Assembly: GCA_947593925.1 (NCBI GenBank)
Contig: CANQDU010000004.1
Coordinates: 49,834-113,833 of the forward strand
DNA from: an uncultured Clostridia bacterium
GTDB lineage: Bacteria; Bacillota; Clostridia; Oscillospirales; JAAYOS01
DNA: 64,000 nt
Reading direction: 5' to 3'
The notes under the pieces are model-generated. The model saw only the letters and a program-made list of their open reading frames with translations. It had not been told where the DNA came from and searched no databases. The position numbers and the translations under genes are program-made. Positions 147 through 52,812 of the stretch are shown here, piece after piece. Each line of letters starts with the position of its first letter. Within the stretch, counting starts at the first letter, position 1.

Positions 147-2147
147 GTGATGCGGAAAATGAAGAAAAAGATAACGGCGGAAACTCTCTGTGAGCTGAAG
201 TTCCCCTCCGAGCCGCGCTTCTCGCCGGACGGACGCTATACCGCGTTCGTCGTGAAGAACGTGAACGGCGAGCGCACCGGCTACTCGAGCGACATCTGGC
301 TCAGCGAGAACGGCTCCGCCCCGCGCAGGCTCACCGCCATGGGCGACGGCGGCTCCTTCTGCTGGTCGCCGGAGGGGAAGATACTCTTCTCCGCCTCGCG
401 CACGCCGGAGGACAAGAAGCGCGCGGGCAAGGGCGAGAAGTTCACCTCCGTCTACGAGATCTCGCCCGACGGAGGCGAGGCGACGAAGGCGTTCACGCTC
501 GAGCACGCCGCAGGCGGGCTCCGCCACGTCGAGGGCAGCCTGTACCTCTTTACCGCCCGCACGGACGAGGCGTATCCCGAGGCGGGAAGCGACGGCTTTG
601 ACAAGGCGCTCGAGCAGTACAACTCCCCCGCCTACCGGGGCATTGAGGACACGCCGTTCTGGTCGAACGGCAGCGGCTTCACCGCCGGTATGCACAGCGT
701 CCTCTTCCTCTACGACCGCGAGAGCGGCAAAGAGACTCAGGTCACGCCGGAGGGCTTCGACGTCCGCTCGGTGTCCGCGAAGAACGGAAAGATAGTCTAC
801 ACCGGCTCGGCGCAGGGTCGCGTCCGCGACATGAGGATATCAGGCCTCTACCTCTATGGCATAGCCTCCGGGTCGACCGAGACGCTTATCGAGCCAGGAC
901 GTCTCAAGCTCGGCTTTGCCGAGCTTCGCGACTGCGGCGACGTCCTCCTCACCTGCACCGACGGTGCAAAGTACGGCGACACCGAGAGCGGCACGCTCCA
1001 CACTCTCGACATTGCGACAAAAGAGCTCCGTCCGCTCGGAGACGGCGCGGTCGTACCGGTCGGCGCCGTCGGAAGCGACGCTCGCCTCGGCGGCGGCATG
1101 AAGACCAAAATCGTGGGCGACGATCTGTACTTCGTGAGCCTCGACCGCTACAAGAACTCCTTAAAGAAGGTCACTTCGGACGGCGGTATCGAGACCGTCC
1201 TCTCCGAGCGCTGCGGTATAGACTCGTTTGACATCTGCGGCGGCAGCGTAGCCTCGATAGAGCTCTCCCCCGTCCGCACGCCCGAGCTGTATATCGACGG
1301 CCGGCAGATAACCGACTTCTCCGCGCCGCTCGACGAGTACGAGACCGTCGCGCCGGAGTACATACCCTTCACGAACGCGGACGGGCTCGTCATAGACGGC
1401 TGGATGCTCCGCCCCGTGGGCTTCGAGGCGGGAAAGAAGTACCCGGCTCTTCTCGAGATACACGGAGGGCCGCGCACCGCGTTCGGCGAGGCGTTCTTCC
1501 ACGAGATGCAGGTTTTCGCAAACGCCGGTTACTTCGTCCTCTTCTGCAACCCGCGCGGCTCGGACGGGCGCGGAGATGCGTTCGCGGATATATGGGGCAA
1601 GTACGGCAGTATCGACTACGACGATATAATGGCGTTTGTTGACAGCGCCCTCGCGTGCGAGAAGTCGATAGACCCGGCGCGGCTCGGCGTCCTCGGCGGA
1701 AGCTACGGCGGCTACATGACAAACTGGATTATCGGCCACACCGACCGCTTCGCCGCCGCCGCAAGCCAGCGCTCCATAGCGAACTGGACCTCCTTCGAGT
1801 TCACAAGCGACATCGGCTTCAACTTCACCCGCATGAACCACCGCACCTCCACCCACGAGAACTGGGACTATCTCTGGGACATCTCCCCGCTCAAGTACGC
1901 GGATAAGGTGAAGACCCCGACGCTTTTCATACACTCGGACAATGACTTCCGCTGCTGGATGGTCGAGGGCATTCAGATGTTCACGGCGCTCCGCTTCCAC
2001 GGCGTCGAGAGCTGCCTCTGCCTCTTTGAGGGCGAGAACCACGAGCTTTCCCGCTCCGGCAAGCCGACTAACCGCATAAGCCGCATCGAGGAGATGCGGG
2101 AGTGGTTTGAAAAGTATCTTCATCCCGAGGAGGCGCAGGAGAAATGA
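147..2147 (+). CDS. S9 family serine peptidase (prolyl oligopeptidase / acylaminoacyl-peptidase type), paralog 1
   Basis: 666-aa ORF. N-terminal beta-propeller-like region plus C-terminal alpha/beta hydrolase with nucleophile motif GGSYGGYMTNW, and D/H context IHSDNDFRC...ENHELSR. Confidence 0.85.
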   Translation: MMRKMKKKITAETLCELKFPSEPRFSPDGRYTAFVVKNVNGERTGYSSDIWLSENGSAPRRLTAMGDGGSFCWSPEGKILFSASRTPEDKKRAGKGEKFTSVYEISPDGGEATKAFTLEHAAGGLRHVEGSLYLFTARTDEAYPEAGSDGFDKALEQYNSPAYRGIEDTPFWSNGSGFTAGMHSVLFLYDRESGKETQVTPEGFDVRSVSAKNGKIVYTGSAQGRVRDMRISGLYLYGIASGSTETLIEPGRLKLGFAELRDCGDVLLTCTDGAKYGDTESGTLHTLDIATKELRPLGDGAVVPVGAVGSDARLGGGMKTKIVGDDLYFVSLDRYKNSLKKVTSDGGIETVLSERCGIDSFDICGGSVASIELSPVRTPELYIDGRQITDFSAPLDEYETVAPEYIPFTNADGLVIDGWMLRPVGFEAGKKYPALLEIHGGPRTAFGEAFFHEMQVFANAGYFVLFCNPRGSDGRGDAFADIWGKYGSIDYDDIMAFVDSALACEKSIDPARLGVLGGSYGGYMTNWIIGHTDRFAAAASQRSIANWTSFEFTSDIGFNFTRMNHRTSTHENWDYLWDISPLKYADKVKTPTLFIHSDNDFRCWMVEGIQMFTALRFHGVESCLCLFEGENHELSRSGKPTNRISRIEEMREWFEKYLHPEEAQEK

Positions 2148-4063
2148 CTAAGAAGAGCGTAGCATACACCGATATATACGAATACTCGCAGGTCTCCGGC
2201 GCGAAGTGGTCGCCGGACGGCAGTTACGCCGTCTTCACGGAGAACCGCGCGGACGAGGAGAAGAACGGCTACAAAACCTGCCTCTGGCTCTACGACAAGG
2301 AGACGGGAAAGACGAAGCGCCTCACAAGCTCCGGCTCCGACCGCTTCGCGTACTGGGAGGAGGAGACCGGCGCCGTCGTGTTCGCGTCCGGCCGTCCCGG
2401 CGCGCCGAAGCGCGAGGGCGCGAAGCCGGAGGACCCCGTCACTCATCTCTTCCGCATATTCCCGGACGGCGGCGAGGCGGAGTTCTACTTCGACCTTCCT
2501 ACCGCCGGTTCCCTCATGCCGATAAAGGACGGGCTGTTCCTTGTCCGCTCCTTCGAGCACGCCCTGCCCGAGGACGAGCGTCCGAAGCGCAAGGGTTATC
2601 AGGTCTTTGACGAGATACCGTTCTGGATAAACGGCATGGGCGTCACGAACAAGAAGCGTCCCGCACTCTCGATATTCGACCGCGCGACGGGGAAGCTCAC
2701 CCGCTTTACCTCTCCCCTATTTGAGGCCGGCGGCGCGGACATATCCCCGGACAAGACAAAGATAGCCTTTACCGGCTCCGAGCTCATCGGCGCGAAGCGC
2801 CGTCAGGGCGGACTGTTCCTCTACGACATAGCTTCCGGCAAGACCGAGACGCTCATCGACCCGCTCACCTCCTGCGTGGACAAGGCGGCGTTCTGGGACG
2901 ACGGCACGCTCCTCATCGGGATAAATCCCTGCAAGGACAGCCACTCCGCCTCCGACCTCTACCGCTACGACCTCACGACTCGGAAGATGACGAAGTTCCC
3001 GCACGACCTCGCGATATACCAGACGGTGCGGGACGGCGGCCTCCTCTACTTCTGCCACGACGAGTGGAGCCACAGCCGCATCGGCGCGATGAACAGCGCG
3101 GGCGAGATAGTGTATTCGCTCTCGACGCCCGGCAGCGTCACCGGCTTCGACGTAAAGGACGGAGAGATAGTCCTCACCGGCGACCGTCCGAACGGGATGC
3201 AGGAGTTCGGAAGGGTCGCGGACGGCGCGGTCGAGTGGATAAGCGCGATAAACGACGGATATGTCGCCTCGCACGAGATAATCCCCGCCGAGCGCTTCAC
3301 CTTCACGAACTCGGACGGCGTGGAGATCGAGGGCTTTGTCATAAAGCCCGCCGGCTGGGAGAAGGGCGGCTCGTACCCCGGCCTTCTCGAGATACACGGA
3401 GGACCGAAGGCCGCCTACAACGTCGCCTACAACCACGAGATGCAGGCGTACGCGGCGCAGGGGTACTACGTCTTCTTCTGCAACCCGCGCGGGTCGAGCG
3501 GACGGACAAGCGAGTTTGCCGACGTCACCGGCAAGCTCGGCACTATTGACTACCGCGACGTCATGGAGTTCACGGACGAAGTCCTCGCCCGCGAGCCCGA
3601 GCTTGACGAAAAGCGGCTCGGCGTCCTCGGCGGTAGCTACGGCGGCTTCATGACGAACTGGATAATCGGCCACACGAACCGCTTCGCCGCCGCCGCAAGC
3701 CAGCGCTCCATCTCGAACTACTTCACGAAATGTCTCACGACCGACATCGGCCACTACCACAACCTCACCCAGATGGAGACCGACCCGTGGCAGGGCGCGG
3801 ATGTGTTCTGGGAGCACTCGCCGCTGAAGTACGCGGACAAGTGCGTCACCCCGACGATATTCATCTGCTCCGACCACGACTTCCGCTGCTGGTTCGCGGA
3901 GGGCATACAGATGTACAACGCGATACGCCGCAACGGCGTGGACGCGCGGCTCTGCATCTTCAAGGACGAGAACCACGAGCTCTCGCGCTCCGGCAAGCCG
4001 AAGAACCGCATTTCCCGCCTCGACGAGATGCTGAAGTGGTTTGACAGATACCTCAAGAAGTAA
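2144..4063 (+). CDS. S9 family serine peptidase, paralog 2
   Basis: 639-aa ORF. GGSYGGFMTNW, CSDHDFRCW and ENHELSRSGKP motifs are colinear with the upstream paralog. ATGA start/stop overlap at 2144-2147, RBS GCAGGAGA. Confidence 0.85.
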   Translation: MTKKSVAYTDIYEYSQVSGAKWSPDGSYAVFTENRADEEKNGYKTCLWLYDKETGKTKRLTSSGSDRFAYWEEETGAVVFASGRPGAPKREGAKPEDPVTHLFRIFPDGGEAEFYFDLPTAGSLMPIKDGLFLVRSFEHALPEDERPKRKGYQVFDEIPFWINGMGVTNKKRPALSIFDRATGKLTRFTSPLFEAGGADISPDKTKIAFTGSELIGAKRRQGGLFLYDIASGKTETLIDPLTSCVDKAAFWDDGTLLIGINPCKDSHSASDLYRYDLTTRKMTKFPHDLAIYQTVRDGGLLYFCHDEWSHSRIGAMNSAGEIVYSLSTPGSVTGFDVKDGEIVLTGDRPNGMQEFGRVADGAVEWISAINDGYVASHEIIPAERFTFTNSDGVEIEGFVIKPAGWEKGGSYPGLLEIHGGPKAAYNVAYNHEMQAYAAQGYYVFFCNPRGSSGRTSEFADVTGKLGTIDYRDVMEFTDEVLAREPELDEKRLGVLGGSYGGFMTNWIIGHTNRFAAAASQRSISNYFTKCLTTDIGHYHNLTQMETDPWQGADVFWEHSPLKYADKCVTPTIFICSDHDFRCWFAEGIQMYNAIRRNGVDARLCIFKDENHELSRSGKPKNRISRLDEMLKWFDRYLKK

Positions 4064-8229: not shown

Positions 8230-8258
8230 TTGACATAAGTCTTCTGAGGCGCTATAAT
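8230..8258 (+). promoter_or_regulatory. Sigma-A promoter for rplJ-rplL
   Basis: TTGACA (8230-8235), 17 nt, TATAAT (8253-8258). Confidence 0.7.
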
Positions 8259-8264
8259 AACGTA

Positions 8265-8400
8265 GTGTTCCGCAGACAGCAGGAGACCTTCGGGTCGCAA
8301 ACGGTTCGGCCGTCCCGCCGAGGAAGCGCCTGAATGTAAAGCATTTCTGCGCCCCTGTGTGTGAACACGGGGGCGTTTTCATTGCCCCGTATCCTAATCC
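8265..8400 (+). ncRNA. Ribosomal protein L10 leader (autoregulatory 5' UTR) with attenuator hairpin
   Basis: Structured ~135-nt leader between the promoter and rplJ. It ends in hairpin CGCCCCTGTGT/ACACGGGGGCG (8350-8375) plus TTTT, the position and style expected for the Firmicute L10 leader. Family assignment is not computationally verified. Confidence 0.5.
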
Positions 8401-9035: not shown

Positions 9036-9413
9036 ATGGCAAGCGAAAAGGTAACTGCTATCATTGAAGAAATCAAGAATCTGACCGTTCTCGAACTGTC
9101 GGATATGGTTCACGAGCTCGAAGAGGTATTCGGCGTTTCCGCCGCTGCCGCTGCCGTCGCGGCTCCCGCCGCCGGCGCCGCCGCTCCCGCCGCCGAGGAG
9201 AAGACCGAGTTTGACGTCGTTCTCGCCGAGGTCGGCGCGAACAAGATCGCCGTCATCAAGGTCGTCCGTGAGGTCACCGGTCTCGGCCTGAAGGAAGCCA
9301 AGGAAGTCGTTGACAACGCTCCGAAGGCCGTCAAGGAAGGCGCGAGCAAGGAAGACGCCGAGGCCATCAAGGCCAAGCTCGAAGAGGCCGGCGCAAAGGT
9401 CGAGCTCAAGTAA
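9036..9413 (+). CDS. rplL: 50S ribosomal protein L7/L12
   Basis: 125 aa. Ala-rich hinge and C-terminal domain [19 protein letters not shown]...EAGAKVELK. Confidence 0.97.
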
Positions 9414-9428
9414 GTTACATTGGTTTGT

Positions 9429-9462
9429 AAAACATCCGCAGGCGTTGCCTGCGGATGTTTTT
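9429..9462 (+). terminator. rplL terminator (copy 1 of a triplicated hairpin)
   Basis: AACATCCGCAGGC-GTT-GCCTGCGGATGTT followed by TTT. Confidence 0.85.
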
Positions 9463-9464
9463 GT

Positions 9465-9760
9465 ATGGCCTCGGCGTCTTCCGGCGGGGCGAAGCCCCGC
9501 CCCGCGCTTATGCGCGGTTAAAGTTGTTTGCCACAGGCAAACAACTTTGCGTAGGGGCGATTCATTCGCCCCGAGCATTTCAATCGGAAGGGTTCCCAAA
9601 AAGTCCACAGGACTTTTTGCGGCGTCAGCCGCAAACCGCGCCTGTTCGCGCGGTTGAAGTTGTCGGCAAAGCCGACAACTTCGCGCAGGGGCGATTCATT
9701 CGCCCCGAGCATTTCAATCGGAAGGGTTCCCAAAAAGTCTTTTAGACTTTTTGGGAATTC
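9465..9760. repeat. Hairpin array inserted between the two rplL-3' copies; contains two tandem ~135-bp units
   Basis: Units start at 9512 and 9648 and share an identical 52-nt core AGGGGCGATTCATTCGCCCCGAGCATTTCAATCGGAAGGGTTCCCAAAAAGTC. Flanking hairpins differ by compensatory changes: AAAGTTGTTTGCC-ACA-GGCAAACAACTTT vs GAAGTTGTCGGC-AAA-GCCGACAACTTC. Confidence 0.85.
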
Positions 9761-9821
9761 AGACGCCGAGGCCATCAAGGCCAAGCTCGAAGAGGCCGGC
9801 GCCAAGGTCGAGCTCAAGTAA
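9761..9821 (+). pseudogene. Orphan duplicate of the last 19 codons of rplL
   Basis: Reads ...[19 protein letters not shown] with no start codon or RBS. It is part of the 408-bp-period duplication. Confidence 0.8.
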
Positions 9822-10024
9822 GTTACATTGGTTTGCGAAACATCCGCAGGCAATGCCTGCGGATGTTTTTGTGTCCGAAATTTGATATATTATCTTAACC
9901 TTCGGTGGATTTCTTCACATTCCGGTAGTATAATAGTCTTAGAGCAAATCTTTCCATGACGATAAGAATAAGTAGTACCGAATGGATGTCTGCCGCACAA
10001 ATCGAGTATCAGCGAGGTTATGAA

Positions 10025-10552
10025 ATGAAGCTGTTTGTTTCTTTTTCGGCAAGAAAAACCGGTAATTGTGCACAGATTATTGATTATCTGAAAACGCCGC
10101 AGGATAAAGTGATTTATTACGCGGATTTGAACGCACACGGATGCAGCGATTGCGGTTATGAGTGTTTCAAAACACAATGCCGCTATCGGGACGATGACGT
10201 TTACCGCCTTTACAGCAGCTTTGCCGACTACGAAAAAGTAATTCTGCTTGTTCCGATGTACTGCGGAAATCCTTCCTCCCTGTATTTTGGCTTTAACGAA
10301 AGAAGTCAGGACTTTTTCATGCACCATGAAAACGAATATACGTCTTTTGTAGAGAGGCTGTTTGTCATCGGCGTCTACGGAAGCAGGAAAGAATCGCCGG
10401 ATTTCATAGGGTGCTTTGAAAAATGGTTTGAGGGAACACCTTACCGGCATCATATTCTGGGGATCGAGCGTCACTTGTACCGGCAGACAATGACAGACAG
10501 CGTAACAGATATTGAACCGGTCAAAGCGGCGCTGCGTGGTTTTATACGGTAA
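10025..10552 (+). CDS. Flavodoxin-like fold / NAD(P)H-dependent FMN reductase-type (iron-sulfur flavoprotein-like) protein
   Basis: The likely start is ATG 10025 (MKLFVSFSARKTGNC...) after GAGG, not the track start 9956. SxRKxGNC P-loop-like motif, Cys cluster HGCSDCGYECFKTQC, and LLVPMYCGNPSS. Visibly AT-richer codon usage than the neighbours. Confidence 0.55.
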   Translation: MKLFVSFSARKTGNCAQIIDYLKTPQDKVIYYADLNAHGCSDCGYECFKTQCRYRDDDVYRLYSSFADYEKVILLVPMYCGNPSSLYFGFNERSQDFFMHHENEYTSFVERLFVIGVYGSRKESPDFIGCFEKWFEGTPYRHHILGIERHLYRQTMTDSVTDIEPVKAALRGFIR

Positions 10553-10602
10553 AGTCCCGTTTGTTGAGGCGAGGTATCGCTTTTTGTAAAGGAGAAGATG
10601 TT

Positions 10603-10806
10603 ATGCCGTTTATGACGCCAATGGCATTGATGCGCAAAAATCTGATAATAAAGAAGCTCAGGGCATGCGGCGCTGTCTCGGAAGAGTCTGCAAAATCTCT
10701 GGCCGAAGCGGGCGTTATAAACCCGGACGGCTTTAAGCGCATAACCGACCGGCTTGTCGAAACCGGCAGCATCCACCGCACTTCCGGCGGCAGATATTAT
10801 GTGTAA
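10603..10806 (+). CDS. Small hypothetical protein (67 aa), possibly winged-helix-like
   Basis: ATG 10603 follows AAAGGAGAA. MPFMTPMALMRKNLIIKKLRACGAVSEESAKSLAEAGV...GSIHRTSGGRYYV. No family recognised with certainty. Confidence 0.45.
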   Translation: MPFMTPMALMRKNLIIKKLRACGAVSEESAKSLAEAGVINPDGFKRITDRLVETGSIHRTSGGRYYV

Positions 10807-10810
10807 CGTA

Positions 10811-10844
10811 AAAACATCCGCAGGCAGCGCCTGCGGATGTTTTT
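10811..10844. terminator. Bidirectional terminator (copy 3 of the rplL terminator hairpin)
   Basis: AACATCCGCAGGC-AGC-GCCTGCGGATGTT flanked by an A-run and a T-run. It lies between the small ORF (+) and the MATE gene (-). Confidence 0.8.
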
Positions 10845-10887
10845 ATCGTCCGAAAGTTCGCCGCATCGCGCCCGCGAGGCTCCGCCG

Positions 10888-15140: not shown

Positions 15141-15302
15141 ACTTATCCTCCCTTTCCGTTCTCTTTAAGTCCAGTATAACCGCCGAAAGGAATTGTGTCA
15201 ACGACAAATCACCCGCTTTTTGTCCCGTTAATGCCAAATAGACGCAACCCGCGTAAGCAAGTCAAAACTCCGACTACTGCACTTCTGCTGCAAATCTACT
15301 GC

Positions 15303-15621
15303 CCCCGGAAACTCACCCGGTCGGATAACAGCTTTGTTTGGAACAAAGTGTCGCCCTGTTCTGGGGGTAATGGTGTTGTGTCTGTGTTGGGAGAGGGATT
15401 TTTAAGGGAGAGGGCGAAGCCCTCTCCCTTAATCGCGCTTTTTGATTACTTTTTGCGCGAGCAAAAAGTAATGCAGGGGTGCGGGGCGGCACAGCCCCGC
15501 AAGGTGTCGGTAGAGCTCTGCTCTACCTAGGGACGCGGGGGCTCGCCCCGCGAATGCTCGCGGGGCTTCCCCGCTATACGGGTGTGGGCTCTGCACGCTT
15601 GGTCGCGGGCTCCGCCCGCGA
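15303..15621 (+). repeat. Composite multi-hairpin repeat, copy 1
   Basis: About 90% identical over ~270 bp to the reverse complement of 25477-25748; its 3' half also matches 26138-26275. It consists of at least 6 consecutive perfect hairpins and abuts the stop codon of the M29 gene. Confidence 0.85.
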
Positions 15622-16830
15622 TTATATCGCGAAGTCTCCGTCCTTGAATATATCCACTTCCCTGCCGTCCTCGGTGGTGCCGACGATGTGCATATCCGGG
15701 GTGCCGATCATGAAGTCGACGTGGATGGTGCTGTCGTTAAACAGGTGCTCGCTTCCCTTAGGGCCGGCGCCGAGGCCGCGTCCGAGCGCGAGGTGGCAGC
15801 TCGCGTTCTCGTCTATGAGCGTGGTGTAATACACGAGGCCGCTCATGCTTATCGGGGAGTGGTACTCGACAAGCGCCGCCTCGCCGAGGTATCCGGCGTT
15901 CTCGTCGGTATGGATCAGATCCTCGAGCATCTCCTTGCCCTCGTTCGCGAGGACTTCGACGACCTTGCCGTCCTTGAAGCGGAAGCCGAAGTTCTCTATC
16001 TTCTTGCCGCCGAGGACGAGGGGACGGGAGGCGTAGACCACGCCGTTCGTCTCGAACTTGTTCGGCGTCGTGCAGATCTCCTCGGAGGGCATGTTCGCGT
16101 GGAACGGTATGAAGTCCTTCGGCATCTCGCGCTTGCCGAAGCCGAAGTGCGACCACGGCGTGAGGCCGACGGTGAGGTCGGTGCCGTTCGAGGCGGTGTA
16201 GTGCAGCTTCGTGAGCTTCAGCTCATCGACGGCGTTGCCGCGCGCGGACGTGCGGCGGCTCTTCTCCTCCCACGCGGCGACGGGGTCGTTGTCCTCGGTG
16301 ATGTAGCAGAGGCGCAGAACGGTCTCCCACAGCTCGTCAAGAGCCTCCTCGCCGGTCTTGCCGAGGATGTACTCCGCCCACTCTATCGTGGGGATCATCG
16401 CGATGAGCCACTGGCAGTGCTTCTCGCGGCTCGCCTTGCGCATGATGTTCCGGACGGCGTCCACGTGCGCGAATATCGCGCTCGAGTTCTTCTCGGAGAC
16501 GCCCTCCATGAGCTTCGGGTTCACGCCCTCGAGGCGGACGTAGCACGCGCCGTTATCGAGGTAGCCCTGGTGCATGGCGACCTCCCAGTCCTCCACGCGG
16601 CGGACGTCCTCGTCCGAGCGGTACTGCGCCGCGACCTTCATGTTCGGCAGGTCGAGGTAATGCACGACGACGTTCCCCGCGCCGAGCTTGTAGCACTCCT
16701 CCGCGAAGATGCTCGTGAACTGCCAGCCTTCTATCGCGGCCTCGACGAGCACGGTCTGTCCCTTCTGGACGTTCAGGCCGACGCGGGCGAGCGTGTACGC
16801 ATACTTGTGCTTCATTTTTTCGAGATCCAT
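15622..16830 (-). CDS. M29 family aminopeptidase (AmpS/PepS type)
   Basis: 402 aa. The N-terminus KYAYTLARVGLNVQKGQTVLV and overall length are typical of aminopeptidase II / peptidase M29. Confidence 0.85.
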   Translation of the reverse strand: MDLEKMKHKYAYTLARVGLNVQKGQTVLVEAAIEGWQFTSIFAEECYKLGAGNVVVHYLDLPNMKVAAQYRSDEDVRRVEDWEVAMHQGYLDNGACYVRLEGVNPKLMEGVSEKNSSAIFAHVDAVRNIMRKASREKHCQWLIAMIPTIEWAEYILGKTGEEALDELWETVLRLCYITEDNDPVAAWEEKSRRTSARGNAVDELKLTKLHYTASNGTDLTVGLTPWSHFGFGKREMPKDFIPFHANMPSEEICTTPNKFETNGVVYASRPLVLGGKKIENFGFRFKDGKVVEVLANEGKEMLEDLIHTDENAGYLGEAALVEYHSPISMSGLVYYTTLIDENASCHLALGRGLGAGPKGSEHLFNDSTIHVDFMIGTPDMHIVGTTEDGREVDIFKDGDFAI

Positions 16831-20532: not shown

Positions 20533-20716
20533 AACCTTGTTGTCAATACCTTTATAACAGTTTTTTTGAAGGAAGCCCAATCTGCGGGTTCCCTCGAAAA
20601 ATTCCGCGGAGTTCCGCCAGCCAAAGAAAGCCGTCTTGCTTATGCGCCCGTGATATGCTACAATACTTGCATCAACAACGAACGCAGTACGGCGTCTATA
20701 TGCGAGAGGAGCGACA

Positions 20717-24385: not shown

Positions 24386-25258
24386 TCAGACGCGCTCCTT
24401 GCCGTAGAAGAAGAGCGCGACGGTGCCGGGGCCGGAGTGCGAGCCTATGACCGGCCCGATGTAGTTCTTGATTATCTTGCCTATCTTATACTTTGCGCGG
24501 AGCTTTTCGATGATGTAGTCCGCGTCCTCCTCGCAGTCGCCGTGGCTGACGGCGATGCAGTCGAACTCGTCCGAGAGCTTGAGGGCGTCCATCCACTCGA
24601 TAAGTCCGTCGAGCGAGCCCCGGCGTCCGCGCTTCTTCGAGCAGGCGCGGAGCTTTCCTTCCGCGTCGACGTCGAGCAGAGGCTTGATGCCGAGCATCGA
24701 ACCGAGGACGGCCGTGCCCTTGCCGACGCGCCCTCCGCGCTGGAGGAACATCAGGTCGTCGACGGTGAAGAGGTGCTGTATGTGCTTCTTGTTGCGTTCG
24801 AGCCAGTCCGCCGTCTCCTCGATGGTCTTTCCCTCGCGGCGGAGACGGACGGCGTAGTGGGTGAGAAGTCCGCCGCCGAGCGAAGCGATAAGTCCGTCGC
24901 AGACGATGAGCTTCCTGTCGGGATAGTCGGGCGCGGCGTCCGCCGCCGCGACGCACGCGGCGTTGTAGGAGCTGGAAATTCCGCTCGACATCGTGATAAC
25001 GAGAAGGTCGCGCCCCGCTTCGAGGTACTTGCGGAACCACTGCTCGTAGGTGTCCGAATTTATCATGGAGGTGGTCGAGACCTGACCCGCGCGGAGCTTG
25101 GCGTAGAACTCGCCGTAGGGAGCGCTCAGTCCGGCGTCGTCAAGGTAGGTCTGGCCGTCGATCATGTAGGTCATCGGGATGAAGTCCACGTCGTTCTGCT
25201 CGTAGAAGTCCCTGGGGAGATCGGTTCCCGCGTCCACCAGAATTGCGAAGTTATCCAT
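24386..25258 (-). CDS. DegV family fatty-acid-binding protein
   Basis: 290 aa. FAILVDAGTDLP..., TTSMINSDTYEQWF and SSGISSSYN are typical DegV motifs. Confidence 0.9.
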   Translation of the reverse strand: MDNFAILVDAGTDLPRDFYEQNDVDFIPMTYMIDGQTYLDDAGLSAPYGEFYAKLRAGQVSTTSMINSDTYEQWFRKYLEAGRDLLVITMSSGISSSYNAACVAAADAAPDYPDRKLIVCDGLIASLGGGLLTHYAVRLRREGKTIEETADWLERNKKHIQHLFTVDDLMFLQRGGRVGKGTAVLGSMLGIKPLLDVDAEGKLRACSKKRGRRGSLDGLIEWMDALKLSDEFDCIAVSHGDCEEDADYIIEKLRAKYKIGKIIKNYIGPVIGSHSGPGTVALFFYGKERV

Positions 25259-25397
25259 AGTCTTTCTCCTCTCTCTTTACCCCGAGGCACGGAAGACAGC
25301 GCGCGCCGCGCGCTCACTGCCGGGATCGGGGCAGGATCTACTGACACAACATATAGTATACACTATTTTTTGCCGCACCGCAAGGTTTTTTCTTGTC

Positions 25398-25750
25398 TGA
25401 GGGCGGAGGCCGCCTCTTCATGTGTGAGGCGCAGCCTCACCACCACCTTCGCGGGGCTGTGCCGCCCCGCACCATCTAGCGGGGAAGCCCCGCGGGCATT
25501 CGCGGGGCGGGTCCCCGCGTCCCTAGGTAGAGCAGAGCTCTACCGACACCTTCGCGGGGCTGTGCCGCCCCGCACCCCTGCGCTACTTTTTGCTCGCGCA
25601 AAAAGTAATCAAAAAGCGCGCTTAAGGGAGAGGGCTTTGCCCTCTCCCTTAAAAATCCCTCTCCCAATACAGACACAACACCATTACCCACATAACAGGG
25701 CACACTCTGTATCCAACAAATCTGTCATCCGACCGGGTGAGTTTCTGGGG
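25398..25750 (-). repeat. Composite multi-hairpin repeat, copy 2 (inverted relative to copies 1 and 3)
   Basis: The reverse complement of 25477-25748 aligns with 15303-15576. Extra hairpins at 25398-25476 include GAGGCGGCCTCCGCCTC-type and GTGAGGC-GCA-GCCTCAC. Confidence 0.85.
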
Positions 25751-25981
25751 AGAACATCAAACTTTTCCTCTTCATTCGACGACATCGAACAGTTCCTGCG
25801 TAGTAGATACAAAAAGTCCGGTCCTACGCTCACACTATAAGCGTAATGCAGAAGCTTTCCCGAGAAAACGGAACTTTCGGTTCTAGGGAAAAGTTTAAGC
25901 GGAGACGCTTGTACTAAGCTACGGACGGACGTCCTGCGTGGCAGAGACCTTCCGATTAAGGAAAGAGGGGTACAAAGGGGA

Positions 25982-26275
25982 GAAAACCGTTGGTTTTCTC
26001 CCCTTTGTGTGCTTTTTGGTTACTTTTTGCACAAGCAAAAAGTAACGCAAGGGTGTGGGGCTGCAAAGCCCCACATGGGGGCGCGGGGGCGCAGCCCCCG
26101 CAAACTGCCCGTGAGGCTCTGCCTCACTCAGGGACGCGGGTCTCGCCCCGCGAATGCTCGCGGGGCTTCCCCGCTATACGGGTGTGGGCTTCGCCCGCTC
26201 GGTCGCGGGGCTTCCCCGCCGGATGGGTGTGGGCTCTGCCCACTTGGGTGCGGGCTCCGCCCGCGGATTTGACCG
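25982..26275 (+). repeat. Composite multi-hairpin repeat, copy 3 (diverged; structure conserved)
   Basis: Same order of hairpin modules as copy 1, but several stems carry compensatory substitutions. The 3' part (26138-26200) is nearly identical to 15529-15598. There is an internal tandem duplication of TCGCGGGGCTTCCCCGC...GGGTGTGGGCT. Confidence 0.8.
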
Positions 26276-26288
26276 TTTCTTGACTTTT

Positions 26289-26317
26289 TTGTGTTATATT
26301 CGTACAATTACAGGAGG
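26289..26317 (+). promoter_or_regulatory. Sigma-A promoter of response-regulator/histidine-kinase operon
   Basis: TTGACT (26289-26294), 17 nt, TACAAT (26312-26317), immediately upstream of the RBS AGGAGG. Confidence 0.6.
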
Positions 26318-35736: not shown

Positions 35737-35942
35737 CAATCGGATCACTCCTCCCCTGTCGTATACGGTATTCGGGGAAGAGGGGCAATATTCGTTTCGC
35801 GGGAAATCGCAGGAGCGGGCCTTGCCCGCTCCTTTACCAATTTCCCGCGAAGCCGCCGGACAGAGCGGAGCTCTGCCGGCGGCAACACTCCGCTCTGTCC
35901 GGCGGTCTCGCTGAAAATCGCGTCAGCGATTTTCGGCGAGAT

Positions 35943-35983
35943 AAAAATAGCACGGACGACCTTGTGTCGTCCGTGCTATTTTT
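35943..35983 (-). terminator. Terminator after the opp operon / DUF3899-like gene
   Basis: AAAAATAGCACGGACGAC-loop-GTCGTCCGTGCTATTTTT, overlapping the stop codon. Confidence 0.8.
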
Positions 35984-36398
35984 ACTCTACGGAGTAATAC
36001 AGTACGATGAACACCACCGCGACGGCGATAAAGCCCAGTCCGCACCAGAAGAGGAAGCTGAAACCCTTCACGGGTCCCTTCTCCTCCTTGCGGGCGAGAT
36101 AGTCGCCGTACTTCTCGCGCTCGCGGAGTCCCCTTCCGGGGAGCAGCATCCGCTTTATCGACTCGGCGGCGTATCCGAGGAACCTCAGCGACCCCTCGTT
36201 TGTCAGCCATATGAGCGCGCCGACGCAGACCATTATCACGCCGGGGACGGTAAAGGAGTTTGCGAGCGCCTTGTACCTGTCCGCCGGGTCGTGCATGAGC
36301 GAGAAGTCGTTGAGCCAAAGGTACAGCAGCACCATCAGCCCGCCGACGACCGCCGTCACGCCGTGCTTTATGAGGTTCCTTCGCAGCTTGTCGCTCAC
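35982..36398 (-). CDS. Small integral membrane protein (DUF3899-like)
   Basis: 138 aa, 3-4 TM, ATGA overlap with the upstream ATPase gene. The family name is from memory of similar YpbF/DUF3899-type proteins and is not verified. Confidence 0.55.
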   Translation of the reverse strand: MSDKLRRNLIKHGVTAVVGGLMVLLYLWLNDFSLMHDPADRYKALANSFTVPGVIMVCVGALIWLTNEGSLRFLGYAAESIKRMLLPGRGLREREKYGDYLARKEEKGPVKGFSFLFWCGLGFIAVAVVFIVLYYSVE

Positions 36399-52539: not shown

Positions 52540-52812
52540 AACCGAACAAGGCAAAAGGCTTTTGACGGGGAGGAGTACGTCGGTTATCCTCTTTCAGAGA
52601 CGGGGCGGAAGGTGCAAGCCCCGAGAGGATCGGCGGAAGGTCGCCCCCGAGCCCCGGAGCCGAAAGCGAAAGCAACTAAGCCCCGGCGGGTTCTCCCGTT
52701 ACAGAGAAGCGGCGTTTCTGCGCCGCGTGAGGTGCGCCGCATATTGCGGCGAATTTAGGTGGTACCGCGGTTCATCCGTCCTAAGCTGTGTGCTTTGGGC
52801 GGCTATTTTTTT
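52540..52812 (+). ncRNA. T-box riboswitch leader (valine-specific, controls valS)
   Basis: Conserved T-box sequence AATTTAGGTGGTACCGCG at 52752-52769, AGAGA motif in Stem I (~52596), and terminator CCGTCCTAAGC-TGTGT-GCTTTGGGCGG (52776-52802) plus a U-tract to 52812. The candidate specifier GUC at 52640-52642 is a tentative placement. Confidence 0.85.

Follow-up and report, generated by a model that had tools for sequence, protein, structure and literature searches.

What kind of element places rows of perfect hairpins between the genes of an uncultured Clostridia bacterium, and why is their pairing kept while their sequence changes? The question is raised by a 64,000-nucleotide stretch of DNA (hereafter, the window), in which an earlier note described three dispersed copies of an element made of consecutive hairpins. 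The three stretches (15303-15621, 25398-25750 in inverted orientation and 25982-26275) are indeed present. The first resembles the inverted second over 148 nt at 95%, 81 nt at 94% and 49 nt at 86% identity, and the third is related to the first over 72 nt at 93% and 87 nt at 79%. The hairpins listed for them are present as perfect stems, and the two-sided stem differences between them are all there. The three stretches are not three copies of a string of hairpins, however. The second and third are the inverted arms of a single unit (25398-26275), with a core between them, and the true unit is this core with its two divergent arms.

A conserved core with two divergent arms

The window contains one and a half copies of a ~0.9-kb non-coding composite unit. 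The complete one has a ~320-nt core flanked by the divergent arms A and B, and the region 15296-15621 is a solo A arm (Table 1). Read outward, an arm consists of a strong hairpin (H1), a ~45-nt junction module that includes an AT hairpin, and a variable array of G+C-rich hairpins. The nhmmer profile of 15 cores matches the window at 15400-15296 over model positions 2-103 only; the centre of the core and arm B are absent from the solo arm. The window has exactly three AT hairpins and exactly three GCCCCGCGAATGCYCGCGGGGC modules, where 0.00 of either would be expected. Perfect hairpins of at least 7 bp number 8 in 15332-15621, 14 in 25424-26166 and 121 in the whole 64 kb.

Table 1. Parts of the solo arm and of the complete unit in the window.
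Feature	Coordinates	Strand	Basis
Solo arm A, remnant of head A (core positions 2-103)	15296-15401	+	nhmmer and alignment
H1 hairpin, A type, TTAAGGGAGAGGGC-GAA-GCCCTCTCCCTTAA	15402-15432	+	Perfect 14-bp stem; in all A arms
Junction module, solo arm A	15434-15472	+	S1 covariation and three-way covariation
S1a CGCGC, solo arm A	15434-15438	+	Hairpin listing, covariation
T-run 1, solo arm A (then linker GA)	15439-15443	+	Hairpin listing, covariation
AT hairpin, solo arm A, ATTACTTTTTGC-GCGA-GCAAAAAGTAAT	15445-15472	+	Perfect hairpin
S1b GCGCG, solo arm A	15455-15459	+	Apex of AT hairpin
G+C-rich hairpin array, solo arm A	15480-15621	+	Hairpin list, fold, gene identities
G+C-rich hairpin array, arm A of complete unit	25398-25581	-	Hairpin list, fold
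Junction module, arm A of complete unit	25582-25621	-	Hairpin list, covariation
AT hairpin, arm A of complete unit	~25582-25609	-	
T-run 1 (complement), arm A of complete unit	25611-25615	-	
S1a (complement), arm A of complete unit	~25616-25620	-	
H1 hairpin, A type, complete unit	25622-25652	-	Flagged terminator-like on minus strand
Conserved core	25653-25971		Alignment of 15 cores, nhmmer, head B consensus fold
Head A	~25653-25750	-	
Core centre	~25780-25850		
Head B	~25816-25971	+	
H1 hairpin, B type, ACAAAGGGGAGAAAACC-GTT-GGTTTTCTCCCCTTTGT	25972-26008	+	Terminator stem, two-sided changes at two pairs
Junction module, arm B	26008-26046	+	Hairpin list, covariation
S1a TGTGC, arm B	26008-26012	+	
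T-run 1, arm B (then linker GG)	26013-26017	+	
AT hairpin, arm B, GTTACTTTTTGC-ACAA-GCAAAAAGTAAC	26019-26046	+	Hairpin list
S1b GCACA, arm B	26029-26033	+	
G+C-rich hairpin array, arm B	26054-26275	+	Hairpin list, fold

The arrays extend to the neighbouring genes. That of the solo arm abuts the stop codon of a gene for an M29 peptidase (15622-16830, minus strand). In the complete unit, the array of arm A ends beside the DegV promoter region, and homology to the region upstream of DegV in a related locus (L116) begins just beyond it; the array of arm B stops just short of a promoter-like site, TTGACT-17-TACAAT (26280-26308), of a response-regulator gene. The genes flanking the window copies encode, according to Pfam, the M29 peptidase, a GH5 cellulase, DegV and an OmpR-type regulator, and none encodes a transposase, in line with what had been proposed from the sequence.

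The two-armed anatomy changes the reading of several differences between the stretches. The supposed replacement of AAGGGAGAGGGC by ACAAAGGGGAGAAAACC did not occur in place: one sequence belongs to A-type arms and the other to B-type arms, and every unit has an arm of each type. The change from GGTAGAGC to GTGAGGC does exist, but it separates two discrete module alleles that recur across copies. The module thought to be invariant has one substitution in the second stretch (ATGCTC to ATGCCC). Pairing is kept while sequence changes, as the earlier note argued, but several of the pairs it listed as compensatory are differences between paralogous module types and therefore represent few independent events. 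The best evidence for the preservation of pairing comes from the wider family, with its H1 and S1 variants, and not from the three stretches of the window.

Hairpin arrays and their strand

Across 31 arrays we found 68 distinct perfect G+C hairpins of ~17-25 nt, and ~16 that have one mismatch. An array has from 1 to ~14 of these short hairpins, taken from a small repertoire and partly organized as tandem super-units of 100-130 nt. Two regions of the window were folded, 15395-15625 with RNA parameters (z = -8.5) and 25965-26278 with DNA parameters (z = -9.4), and in neither case did any shuffled sequence fold as well. The H1 hairpin is also maintained across the family: of 94 distinct upstream sequences, 58 have an H1 stem of at least 9 bp, a length reached by 4% of shuffles. 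Within group 1, the loop (C/A)(A/G)TCGAAA is constant and the stem has changed two-sidedly at 4 or more positions.

The arrays differ between their two strands. When folded as RNA, 28 of 31 arrays do better on the outward-reading strand than on the complement, with a mean difference of -6.9 kcal/mol for which G+T-rich linkers could be partly responsible. G-U pairs number 193 on the outward strand and 73 on the complement, and single stem mismatches are more often G-T (24) than A-C (10). Counted over distinct cases, the strand bias of the stems is 12 versus 7, which is weak and too few to settle the strand.

Covariation in the junction module

The junction module is found far from this lineage. 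We identified it in 76 metagenome loci, with GC contents from 0.32 to 0.68 and without the Clostridia heads, and also in Diaphorobacter, Fulvitalea and Aureibacter. Its reach beyond Clostridia includes Bacteroidota plasmids and a betaproteobacterium, and each time the heads and the hairpin arrays are different. Among other collections, phages and Escherichia coli genomes gave no match, and IMG/VR gave one, in an AT-rich contig of 123 kb. The earlier note did not point out that the AT hairpin, together with its 5' T-run, makes a motif common to several phyla. The metagenome set was gathered with an exact pattern that fixes the T and A runs, so their invariance in this set is partly built in, and independent support for it comes from the Clostridia loci, the BLAST matches and the second copies only.

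Covariation links the bases 5' of the first T-run (S1a) to the apex of the AT hairpin (S1b), in seven compensated variants: CGCGC/GCGCG, UGUGC/GCACA, CGUG/CACG, CGGCG/CGCCG, GCGG/CCGC, CGCC/GGCG and GAGAGA/UCUCUC. The full 5-bp S1 is present in 94 of the 115 instances of the exact-match set. In a permutation test, 23 of 5000 shuffles came up to the observed count. S1 is weak (2-3 bp) in a low-GC group with apex CGCC. The AT stem (S2) covaries at its base, where TTAC/GTAA becomes CTAC/GTAG and GG..CC becomes GA..T. There is also a three-way covariation in mirror register, in which a T-to-C change in the T-run accompanies a U:A-to-C:G change in the AT stem. The combination CTTTT...TTTTC...GAAAA occurs in 9 of 9 cases, and of the 136 cases with a T:A pair, one has the C; the values from Fisher's test, which ignore ancestry, are 1.6e-13 when instances are counted and 1.7e-7 for distinct sequences. 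The exceptions are three instances of GTTTT with a T:A pair. Since the variants follow lineages, the S1 and triple covariations represent few independent events, and the C/C:G state may have a single evolutionary origin. In one copy (L055) the apex of the hairpin is flipped, which is a DNA-level event.

An H-type pseudoknot on the outward strand that includes a major-groove triple helix fits this pattern, and the substitutions would be hard to explain without the two. The geometry speaks against it: nearest-neighbour rules favor the closed AT hairpin of 12-15 bp, and loop L3 would have only 2-3 nt. The T.A-T and C+.G-C triples and the G.T pairs can also form in single-stranded DNA. RNAfold suggested a third helix, joining S1a and the T-run to a G-rich stretch 3' of the AT hairpin; we dropped it because it is present in A arms and some group-1 copies and absent from B arms and group 2.

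Copy number and genomic setting

The earlier note had proposed a dispersed, non-coding, multi-copy family, and related genomes bear this out. A scan with the GC module returned 29 loci, 20 of which carry the element, in three related rabbit-gut Clostridia MAGs. We recovered 17 full-length cores with nhmmer, and two related rabbit-gut Clostridia MAGs have at least 13 and at least 7 units. Landmark maps give the same order at nearly all loci: array, AT hairpin, H1(B), head B, core, head A, H1(A), AT hairpin, array. All units are intergenic. They do not encode proteins: short ORFs in the heads are not kept between copies (the ATG is lost or a stop is present), and the long ORFs that span the arrays are artefacts of GC-rich frames, as had been suspected for all ORFs inside the copies.

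Arrays change fast. For example, two orthologous loci (L019 and L025) have arrays that differ in the number and type of modules. All synteny breakpoints that could be examined carry units. Short-read contigs break within the element. We rejected the possibility of an assembly artefact because the intergenic length is equal in two independent assemblies and many MAGs carry the family.

What the unit may be

We tentatively favor, at somewhat less than even chances, a non-autonomous repeat of mosaic build, belonging to an uncultured lineage of gut Clostridia, in which each arm would fold into a 3' cap at the RNA level. If the arms are transcribed, as we assume, it is in the RNA read outward that their tail would fold and act. 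An H-type pseudoknot would then arise in the junction module: S1a would pair with the apex S1b of the AT hairpin, and the T-run would occupy the major groove of the AT stem along its U5:A5 part and supply the third strand. H1, pseudoknot and array together could make a compact 3' structure that resists exonucleases and helicases, fixing and protecting the 3' ends of transcripts that leave the core. These transcripts would be structured non-coding RNA here and small genes in one other lineage. The unit, having no enzyme gene, would persist and spread as non-autonomous DNA. Slippage and recombination between copies may lengthen or shorten its arrays and exchange their modules, and selection on folding would keep the stems paired. 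A core in which no promoter-like site was found and a head A free of covariation speak against this reading, as they do against small-RNA genes (below).

A bolder extension is possible, if doubtful. The junction module could be a previously undescribed bacterial RNA fold, an H-type pseudoknot with four or five U.A-U / C+.G-C triples, acting as a universal 3' "tail." This tail would have been kept from Clostridia to Bacteroidota and Betaproteobacteria, always between a hairpin and a growing lineage-specific array, and would close non-coding or small-gene cassettes at their outward ends. It might be an exonuclease-proof cap, a bacterial counterpart of the ENE- and MALAT1-type triple helices. More radically, it might be a handle for a trans-acting reverse transcriptase or HUH enzyme that copies the elements and adds hairpin units, in which case it would resemble a SINE tail common to unrelated heads.

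A unit without an enzyme gene raises another question: could an enzyme encoded elsewhere act on the DNA? The family might be of the REP/REPIN or PATE kind, with hairpins recognised in single-stranded DNA by an HUH (Y1) enzyme, a RAYT or an IS200/IS605 TnpA. A single-copy enzyme would copy or move the hairpins at replication, and the covariation would reflect DNA hairpins and base triples at its site. Short extragenic G+C-rich palindromes at high copy number, their clustering, the variation of arrays between copies, the location of units at synteny breakpoints and the flipped apex of L055 are all consistent with such a process, and the strand asymmetry and the mirror-register triple would also be possible in single-stranded DNA. 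However, no transposase gene lies inside or beside the units, and tblastn with the TnpA of IS200 and IS608 gave nothing significant in 829 kb that include the window and surround at least 140 modules; the single match, in L112, has E = 0.42. A blastp clustering of 1789 ORFs from 76 loci returned only housekeeping genes as recurrent families. Neither TnpA nor TnpB was found among these recurrent flanking ORFs, in the Pfam annotation of flanking genes or by tblastn in the 829 kb; a single-copy RAYT could easily lie outside that sample. No common GTAG-type tetranucleotide flanks the different hairpin modules, GTAG being present only within the GGTAGAGC module. Furthermore, unlike in REP families, the same 30-45-nt module is present in Firmicutes, Bacteroidota and Betaproteobacteria with unrelated neighbouring hairpins, and the ~320-nt core with its conserved centre is left without explanation. 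We consider an enzyme-driven DNA family unlikely.

The core itself could suggest a different function, that of a pair of divergent trans-acting small-RNA genes, A and B, members of a multigene family in which the arrays are terminators or 3' stabilisers. The 15 complete cores align at 78-94% identity, and conservation is uneven: ends and centre are at 93-99% and the interior at 79-88%. Copies that are ~10% apart overall hardly vary in the centre and in parts of the heads. Head B has a multi-stem consensus fold, including a hairpin with a variable loop, and many pairs of this fold are kept through changes from G-U to A-U or G-C on one strand. The B-type H1 with its T-run scores as an intrinsic terminator. 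Against this, a consensus scan of the core revealed no sigma-70-like promoter, and the candidates picked by hand from the core alignment are weak; the alignment of head A has no covariation; and that of head B, which includes the B-type H1, has two-sided changes at only 4 of 67 pairs, two of them in H1. The heads are confined to the Clostridia lineage, whereas the tail is common to elements with other heads or small genes, and small-RNA genes would not account for arrays of up to ~14 hairpins. This makes a small-RNA family quite unlikely in our opinion.

A stacked transcription terminator or insulator, stopping or pausing RNA polymerase from either side and blocking read-through, was among the identities first proposed. 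The intergenic arrays do fill the space as far as the neighbouring gene, and 19 of 32 face the 3' end of a gene. Two H1 hairpins of the window were flagged as terminator-like, and like an intrinsic terminator they present a G+C-rich hairpin and then a T-run, with the B type qualifying as one. Yet the fit is poor. The gap between H1 and the T-run is 2 nt in the B type, but it is a conserved, covarying spacer of 4-7 nt in A-type arms and most other lineages, and the T-run covaries with the next stem. The G+C hairpins that follow have no T-runs, and reading inward there is no hairpin followed by a T-run in the window copies. Thirteen arms face gene starts, with the promoter of the gene outside the array. 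Neither the conserved core nor the covariation of the T-run would be explained, and we regard termination as a very unlikely function of the whole unit. Neutral palindromic DNA, i.e., decaying junk spread by recombination with stems kept by intrastrand template switching or gene conversion, is just as improbable: stems that are overwhelmingly perfect, copies that differ by discrete module alleles and not by graded intermediates, the apex flip and the fast change of arrays would suit it, but the uneven conservation of the core and the presence of the junction module across phyla would not, and palindrome correction cannot produce S1 or the mirror-register change, neither of which lies in a palindrome.

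Relation to known repeats and folds

No known family could be assigned from the sequence, and the databases agree with this. Rfam 15 has no match in the element at or above the gathering threshold. The best match below it, BTnc231 (32 bits versus 80.4), was rejected because it aligns three generic hairpins without shared sequence; four loci of other lineages do not match it. Searches of the literature returned unrelated primer matches only (full text, for the motif sequence) or general papers on REP/RAYT and triple helices (keywords).

The likeness to REP/BIME elements, proposed at the outset, is real in part. Both are short extragenic G+C-rich palindromes in many copies, forming mosaic arrays of variable unit number, often at gene ends. 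It is established that REPs protect the mRNA upstream of them from 3' exonucleases, and REP families are lineage-specific. The element described here differs in having a conserved core between two divergent arms, an A+T-rich junction module with a 5' T-run that opens every array, and array units that are tandem in one orientation instead of alternating. It lacks a conserved GTAG-type motif, RAYT was not found in the 829 kb, and its junction module crosses phyla.

The BOX elements of Streptococcus pneumoniae, with the structure boxA-(boxB)n-boxC, are non-coding. They resemble our unit in being modular intergenic repeats of a Firmicute with fixed end modules, a variable number of internal modules and stable predicted folds, and no transposase is known for either. 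Their sequences are unrelated to those studied here, where the unit is two-armed and inverted around a core, the arrays have many hairpin types, and one module is common to distant phyla.

A MITE-like family (as Correia of Neisseria, RUP or bcr1) had also been suggested. The units are small, non-autonomous, multi-copy and intergenic, they have inverted terminal parts and they lie at rearrangement points. In contrast to MITEs, the inverted parts are hairpin arrays of 200-500 nt, and their outer ends are not fixed, being different in every copy because array length varies. We saw no target-site duplication at 25398/26275. A comparison of DegV orthologues gave no clean pair of filled and empty sites among relatives because synteny is too fluid: two loci (L116 and L013) have the unit beside other genes, and two others (L121 and L122) lack it in a rearranged context. 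We know of no parent insertion sequence for the element. PATEs derived from IS200/IS605 have imperfect end hairpins in the same orientation, insert 3' of a fixed tetra- or pentanucleotide and have a parent IS with TnpA or TnpB. Here, the arms lie in inverted orientation, the palindrome of the AT hairpin is perfect, and neither enzyme was found in the sequence searched.

At the RNA level, the closest analogues are the H-type triple-helix pseudoknots of the telomerase RNA core and of the SAM-II/SAM-V and preQ1-II riboswitches, with the related triple helices of ENE, MALAT1 and PAN. The junction module has their order of parts (S1a, U-rich loop 1, S2a, S1b, short loop, S2b), the A-U tract of S2 adjoins the junction, the U-run would be placed parallel to the purine strand, and the change from U.A-U to C+.G-C would be isosteric. 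Unlike these pseudoknots, it has no matching Rfam model, its competing closed hairpin is very stable, and its fold is a prediction from sequence. It is found in repeats, between a hairpin and an array, and not upstream of genes like the riboswitches.

Mosaic intergenic repeats have been well studied in proteobacteria and streptococci and hardly in uncultured gut Clostridia. This family bears on the quality of MAGs and on genome rearrangement in the Clostridia of the rabbit gut, since contigs end inside its units and the breakpoints examined carry them. Few natural RNA triple helices are known; the pseudoknot, if real, would join them as a bacterial class carried by repeats, and it would offer a handle on an old problem, the RNA-level role of REP-like arrays and the way in which they grow. 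Finally, an XRE-type gene and a divergent ORF lie in the core of one locus (L039), and both run toward a junction module.

Organization of the repeat

The earlier note had described three copies of a hairpin-rich element in the window. All three stretches are there, and the second and third, which it took for separate copies, are the two arms (A and B) of a single unit whose core is the stretch separating them. The first is a solo A arm, with no more of the core than its initial ~100 nt. It matches the inverted second stretch over 148 nt (95%), 81 nt (94%), and 49 nt (86%), and the third over 72 nt (93%) and 87 nt (79%). The compensatory stem differences reported between these stretches are real, but most of them are discrete alleles of a module or differences between A and B arms, and thus represent few independent compensatory events.

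The structures stand out from a window with 61% G+C. A census of perfect hairpins (stem of at least 7 bp, loop of 3 to 8 nt) gave 121 in the 64 kb, including 8 in 15332-15621 and 14 in 25424-26166. The window has three instances of the AT hairpin TACTTTTTGC-N4-GCAAAAAGTA and three of the module GCCCCGCGAATGCYCGCGGGGC, against 0.00 expected for each, and the arms fold far better than their dinucleotide shuffles (z = -8.5 and -9.4). The element has no coding capacity and matches no Rfam family at threshold over any part of its length; no tRNA genes were found. As had been noted, no transposase lies nearby: the neighbors are a GH5 cellulase, an M29 peptidase, DegV, and an OmpR-type regulator with its kinase. 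Every short-read (Logan) contig with the M29 gene (L003-L006) breaks off ~57 nt beyond the stop codon of that gene, where the solo arm's hairpin array has already begun, so that the repeat fragments assemblies.

Positions of the features discussed (L numbers are loci collected for comparison)
Sequence	Position	Strand	Feature
Window	15303-15621	+	Solo A arm
Window	15402-15432		A-type H1, the strong hairpin preceding the AT hairpin
Window	25398-25750	inverted	One arm of the unit 25398-26275
Window	25982-26275	+	Other arm of the same unit
Window	9353-10845		Whole region from the rplL end and terminator (AAAACATCCGCAGGC-GTT-GCCTGCGGATGTTTT) through the features of the next four rows
Window	9483-9757		Second, different array 3' of the rplL terminator: about 10 perfect hairpins; internal 92-nt duplication, stems differing on both arms
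Window	9761-9872		112-nt duplicate of rplL 3' end plus terminator, 96% identical
Window	9873-10808		Low-GC island, about 935 nt, small ORFs
Window	10809-10845		Third copy of rplL terminator
L121; L122; L116	1-420; 1780-4010; 1-1850		Loci compared for rplL-DegV order
L119; L122	20-60; 1850-1880		Relatives' rplL terminator, GGGGAGAGGGC-AAAC-GCCCTCTCCCC then T-run
L009; L028; L031	6660-6770; 3510-3620; about 450-560	L031: -	Extra ~110-nt module
L039 (GC 0.61)	620-1620		Two outward-facing junction modules around a 976-nt core of lower G+C
L055	317	-	Apical 8 nt inverted, GTGCGGAC in place of GTCCGCAC
L065; L097; L103	3898; 4469; 7977		Comparison copies for the L055 apex
Window	8252-8390		Ribosomal protein L10 leader, 47.4 bits, above Rfam gathering threshold
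Window	52552-52786		T-box leader, 122 bits, above Rfam gathering threshold
Window	1679-2119; 3613-4053		Two direct repeats (107 nt at 93%, 247 nt at 76%), spacing 1934 nt
Window	35840-35918		39-nt inverted repeat, 1-nt gap
Window	35942-35984		Perfect 19-bp hairpin TAAAAATAGCACGGACGAC-CTTGT-GTCGTCCGTGCTATTTTTA

A search for the 22-nt G+C module, with each species represented by one genome, gave 29 loci. The element is present in 20 of them, all in three uncultured rabbit-gut Clostridia MAGs: Lapin-022__bin13 (12 loci), Lapin-004__bin9 (7, together with one headless array of hairpins), and Lapin-008__bin30 (1). In a fourth Clostridia MAG the scan found just a lone hairpin, and seven matches in unrelated phyla look like chance. 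Mapping of flanks and landmarks revealed two kinds of head preceding the AT hairpin, which always co-occur and diverge; the order is array, AT hairpin, H1(B), head B, centre, head A, H1(A), AT hairpin, array. Fifteen complete cores, with ~470 nt between the two AT hairpins, are 78-94% identical in alignment, nearly invariant at the ends and centre and looser in the interior. A profile search found 17 full cores, restricted to this rabbit-gut lineage. Units are always intergenic, and their arrays extend as far as the next gene. Short-read contigs terminate within the element, as expected of a multi-copy repeat; an assembly artefact was excluded for the composite element.

Beyond the AT hairpin, an array may have a single hairpin or as many as about 14, drawn from a small set of types. 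A nested hairpin recurs, GCGGGG-N4-[GCCCCGCGA-ATGC-TCGCGGGGC]-TT-CCCCGC, with apical variants CGA/TCG, CAG/CTG, and CGG/CCG; one locus (L026) has three consecutive super-units spaced about 110-130 nt. Two species differ in their arrays even where the locus is orthologous (L019 and L025), and such changes could arise through slippage and recombination. In three units an extra module separates the AT hairpin from the first G+C hairpin. It contains GCATTGTCCGC-TTC-GCGGACAATGC and is flanked on both sides by GTGC, and the AT stem of these units has one additional T.

Covariation in the junction module

S1a, the 4-6 nt directly preceding the first T-run, and S1b, at the apex of the AT hairpin, are complementary and co-vary in seven compensated variants (S1a/S1b): CGCGC/GCGCG, UGUGC/GCACA, CGUG/CACG, CGGCG/CGCCG, GCGG/CCGC or CCGU, CGCC/GGCG, and GAGAGA/UCUCUC or UCUUUC. 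The full 5-bp S1 is present in 94 of 115 instances of the exact-match set, and the observed count was reached by 23 of 5000 shuffles across haplotypes; variants follow lineages, so that independent covariation events are few, and the metagenome set was gathered with the T and A runs held fixed. A low-GC group whose apex is CGCC departs from this pattern. One copy (L055) has an inverted apex that disrupts S1 and resembles a hairpin-apex flip. In the metagenomic loci of group 1, H1 has two-sided stem changes beneath a conserved loop.

A further change involves three positions. C:G replaces the loop-proximal U:A of the AT stem (ACTTTTC...GAAAAGT) in nine modules, which represent six distinct sequences at nine loci, and in all nine the first T-run begins with C (CTTTT). 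Among modules with the T:A pair, the T-run starts with C in 1 of 136, a scrambled copy (Fisher test, 1.6e-13 for instances and 1.7e-7 for distinct sequences, uncorrected for ancestry). Since CTTTT...TTTTC is a mirror repeat, Watson-Crick pairing cannot account for this three-way change. Such a change is what a putative pyrimidine third strand parallel to the purine strand would predict, with four U.A-U triples and one C+.G-C. The order of the module (S1a, Y5 plus linker, S2a, S1b, 2-3 nt, S2b, with S2 the AT stem) would imply an H-type pseudoknot with loop 1 lying in the second stem's major groove, a fold with which the closed AT hairpin competes. Telomerase RNA and the SAM-II riboswitch contain H-type pseudoknots with the first loop so placed, and their elements come in the same order.

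The junction module in other lineages

The module reaches across phyla. A metagenome scan with the pattern TTTTTGRYTACTTTTTGC-N4-GCAAAAAGTA identified 76 loci of G+C 0.32 to 0.68, none with the Clostridia heads or G+C module; numerous matches sit at contig ends. On the 5' side of the motif there is in all of them a strong but differing hairpin with a short spacer (GCGTG or GCGCG), and on the 3' side are group-specific hairpins. Eight loci have outward-facing module pairs, spaced 296-4076 nt, in the two-armed layout of the Clostridia unit, and seven of these (296-976 nt) enclose no housekeeping gene. Within the core of one of the eight (L039) are an XRE-family HTH gene of 80 codons and, divergent from it, an ORF of 108 codons that matches nothing in Pfam. 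Plasmid BLAST placed the module in the betaproteobacterium Diaphorobacter sp. HDW4B and, within a local repeat, in the Bacteroidota Fulvitalea axinellae and Aureibacter tunicatorum; none was found in phage records or E. coli genomes. Flanking genes are housekeeping genes, with no recurrent enzyme family. We found no published description of the motif and no entry in Rfam 15, and the module may be a new structured motif. Group 1 (GC ~0.63, L045-L110) also has a conserved outer block ~100-200 nt beyond the AT hairpin, preceded by one or two hairpins and made up of the palindrome GAAACATGTTTC and then CCCACCCGCCCGGCGATACGCGAATCAGCCCTGCATCGGCCAGATGCGCCGGCACAG; two variant forms look compensated.

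Possible functions

RNA folding favors the outward strand, whose fold is the more stable of the two strands' in 28 of 31 arrays (mean difference -6.9 kcal/mol; 193 versus 73 G-U pairs). Mismatches in otherwise perfect stems, G-T rather than A-C (24 versus 10; 12 versus 7 distinct cases), weakly favor it too. The reading with the most support, held tentatively, is a non-autonomous mosaic repeat, possibly mobile, whose arms bear a structured tail that would act on the outward strand, with RNA the simplest form for it, and could serve as a 3' cap. The tail would consist of H1, the pseudoknot with its triplex, and the hairpin array, and would fix and protect the 3' ends of transcripts exiting the core.

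The same base triples could form in single-stranded DNA, and the composite element behaves like REP/BIME arrays and shares a modular construction with pneumococcal BOX elements. A REP/RAYT-like system working on single-stranded DNA seems unlikely. Of the defining features of these families, we found no RAYT in the 829 kb of sequence searched, no GTAG-type motif, no target duplication, and no fixed ends. A multigene sRNA family is more doubtful again. The consensus fold of head B has several stems, and many of its pairs alternate G-U with A-U or G-C on the outward strand; head A has no convincing consensus fold or covariation, and the core no promoter-like site. A terminator or insulator stack is quite improbable; 19 arrays face a gene 3' end, which would suit it, and 13 a 5' end, which would not. 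Equally improbable is neutral palindromic DNA, which could fit mostly perfect stems (68 distinct perfect hairpins versus about 16 with one mismatch) but not readily the covarying junction module.

Rearrangements and other features of the window

In a relative whose DegV is 82% identical (L121), the genes immediately upstream of DegV are rplL with its terminator, and no unit separates the two. The window has 15 kb separating rplL (which ends at 9413, plus strand) from DegV (24386-25258, minus strand), in inverted arrangement, and both junctions bear hairpin arrays (9413 side and 25258-25400 side). The ancestral arrangement rplL-terminator-DegV-PBP, which relatives retain, is disrupted in the window by a ~15-kb inversion. 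In the close relative Lapin-008__bin30, unit and DegV are separated by an aldo-keto reductase gene, and in Lapin-022__bin13 a unit lies at the end of synteny with window position 20622. The repeats thus coincide with every breakpoint that could be examined.

Near rplL, the insertions of the second array and of the low-GC island are both bracketed by direct repeats containing the terminator. The 10-nt stem core of the relatives' rplL terminator recurs in the A-type H1. This may be coincidence among purine-rich terminators, or it may point to H1 having originated as a captured terminator. Elsewhere in the window, the T-box and L10 leaders are ordinary Firmicute features, and the direct repeats probably derive from tandem paralogous genes.
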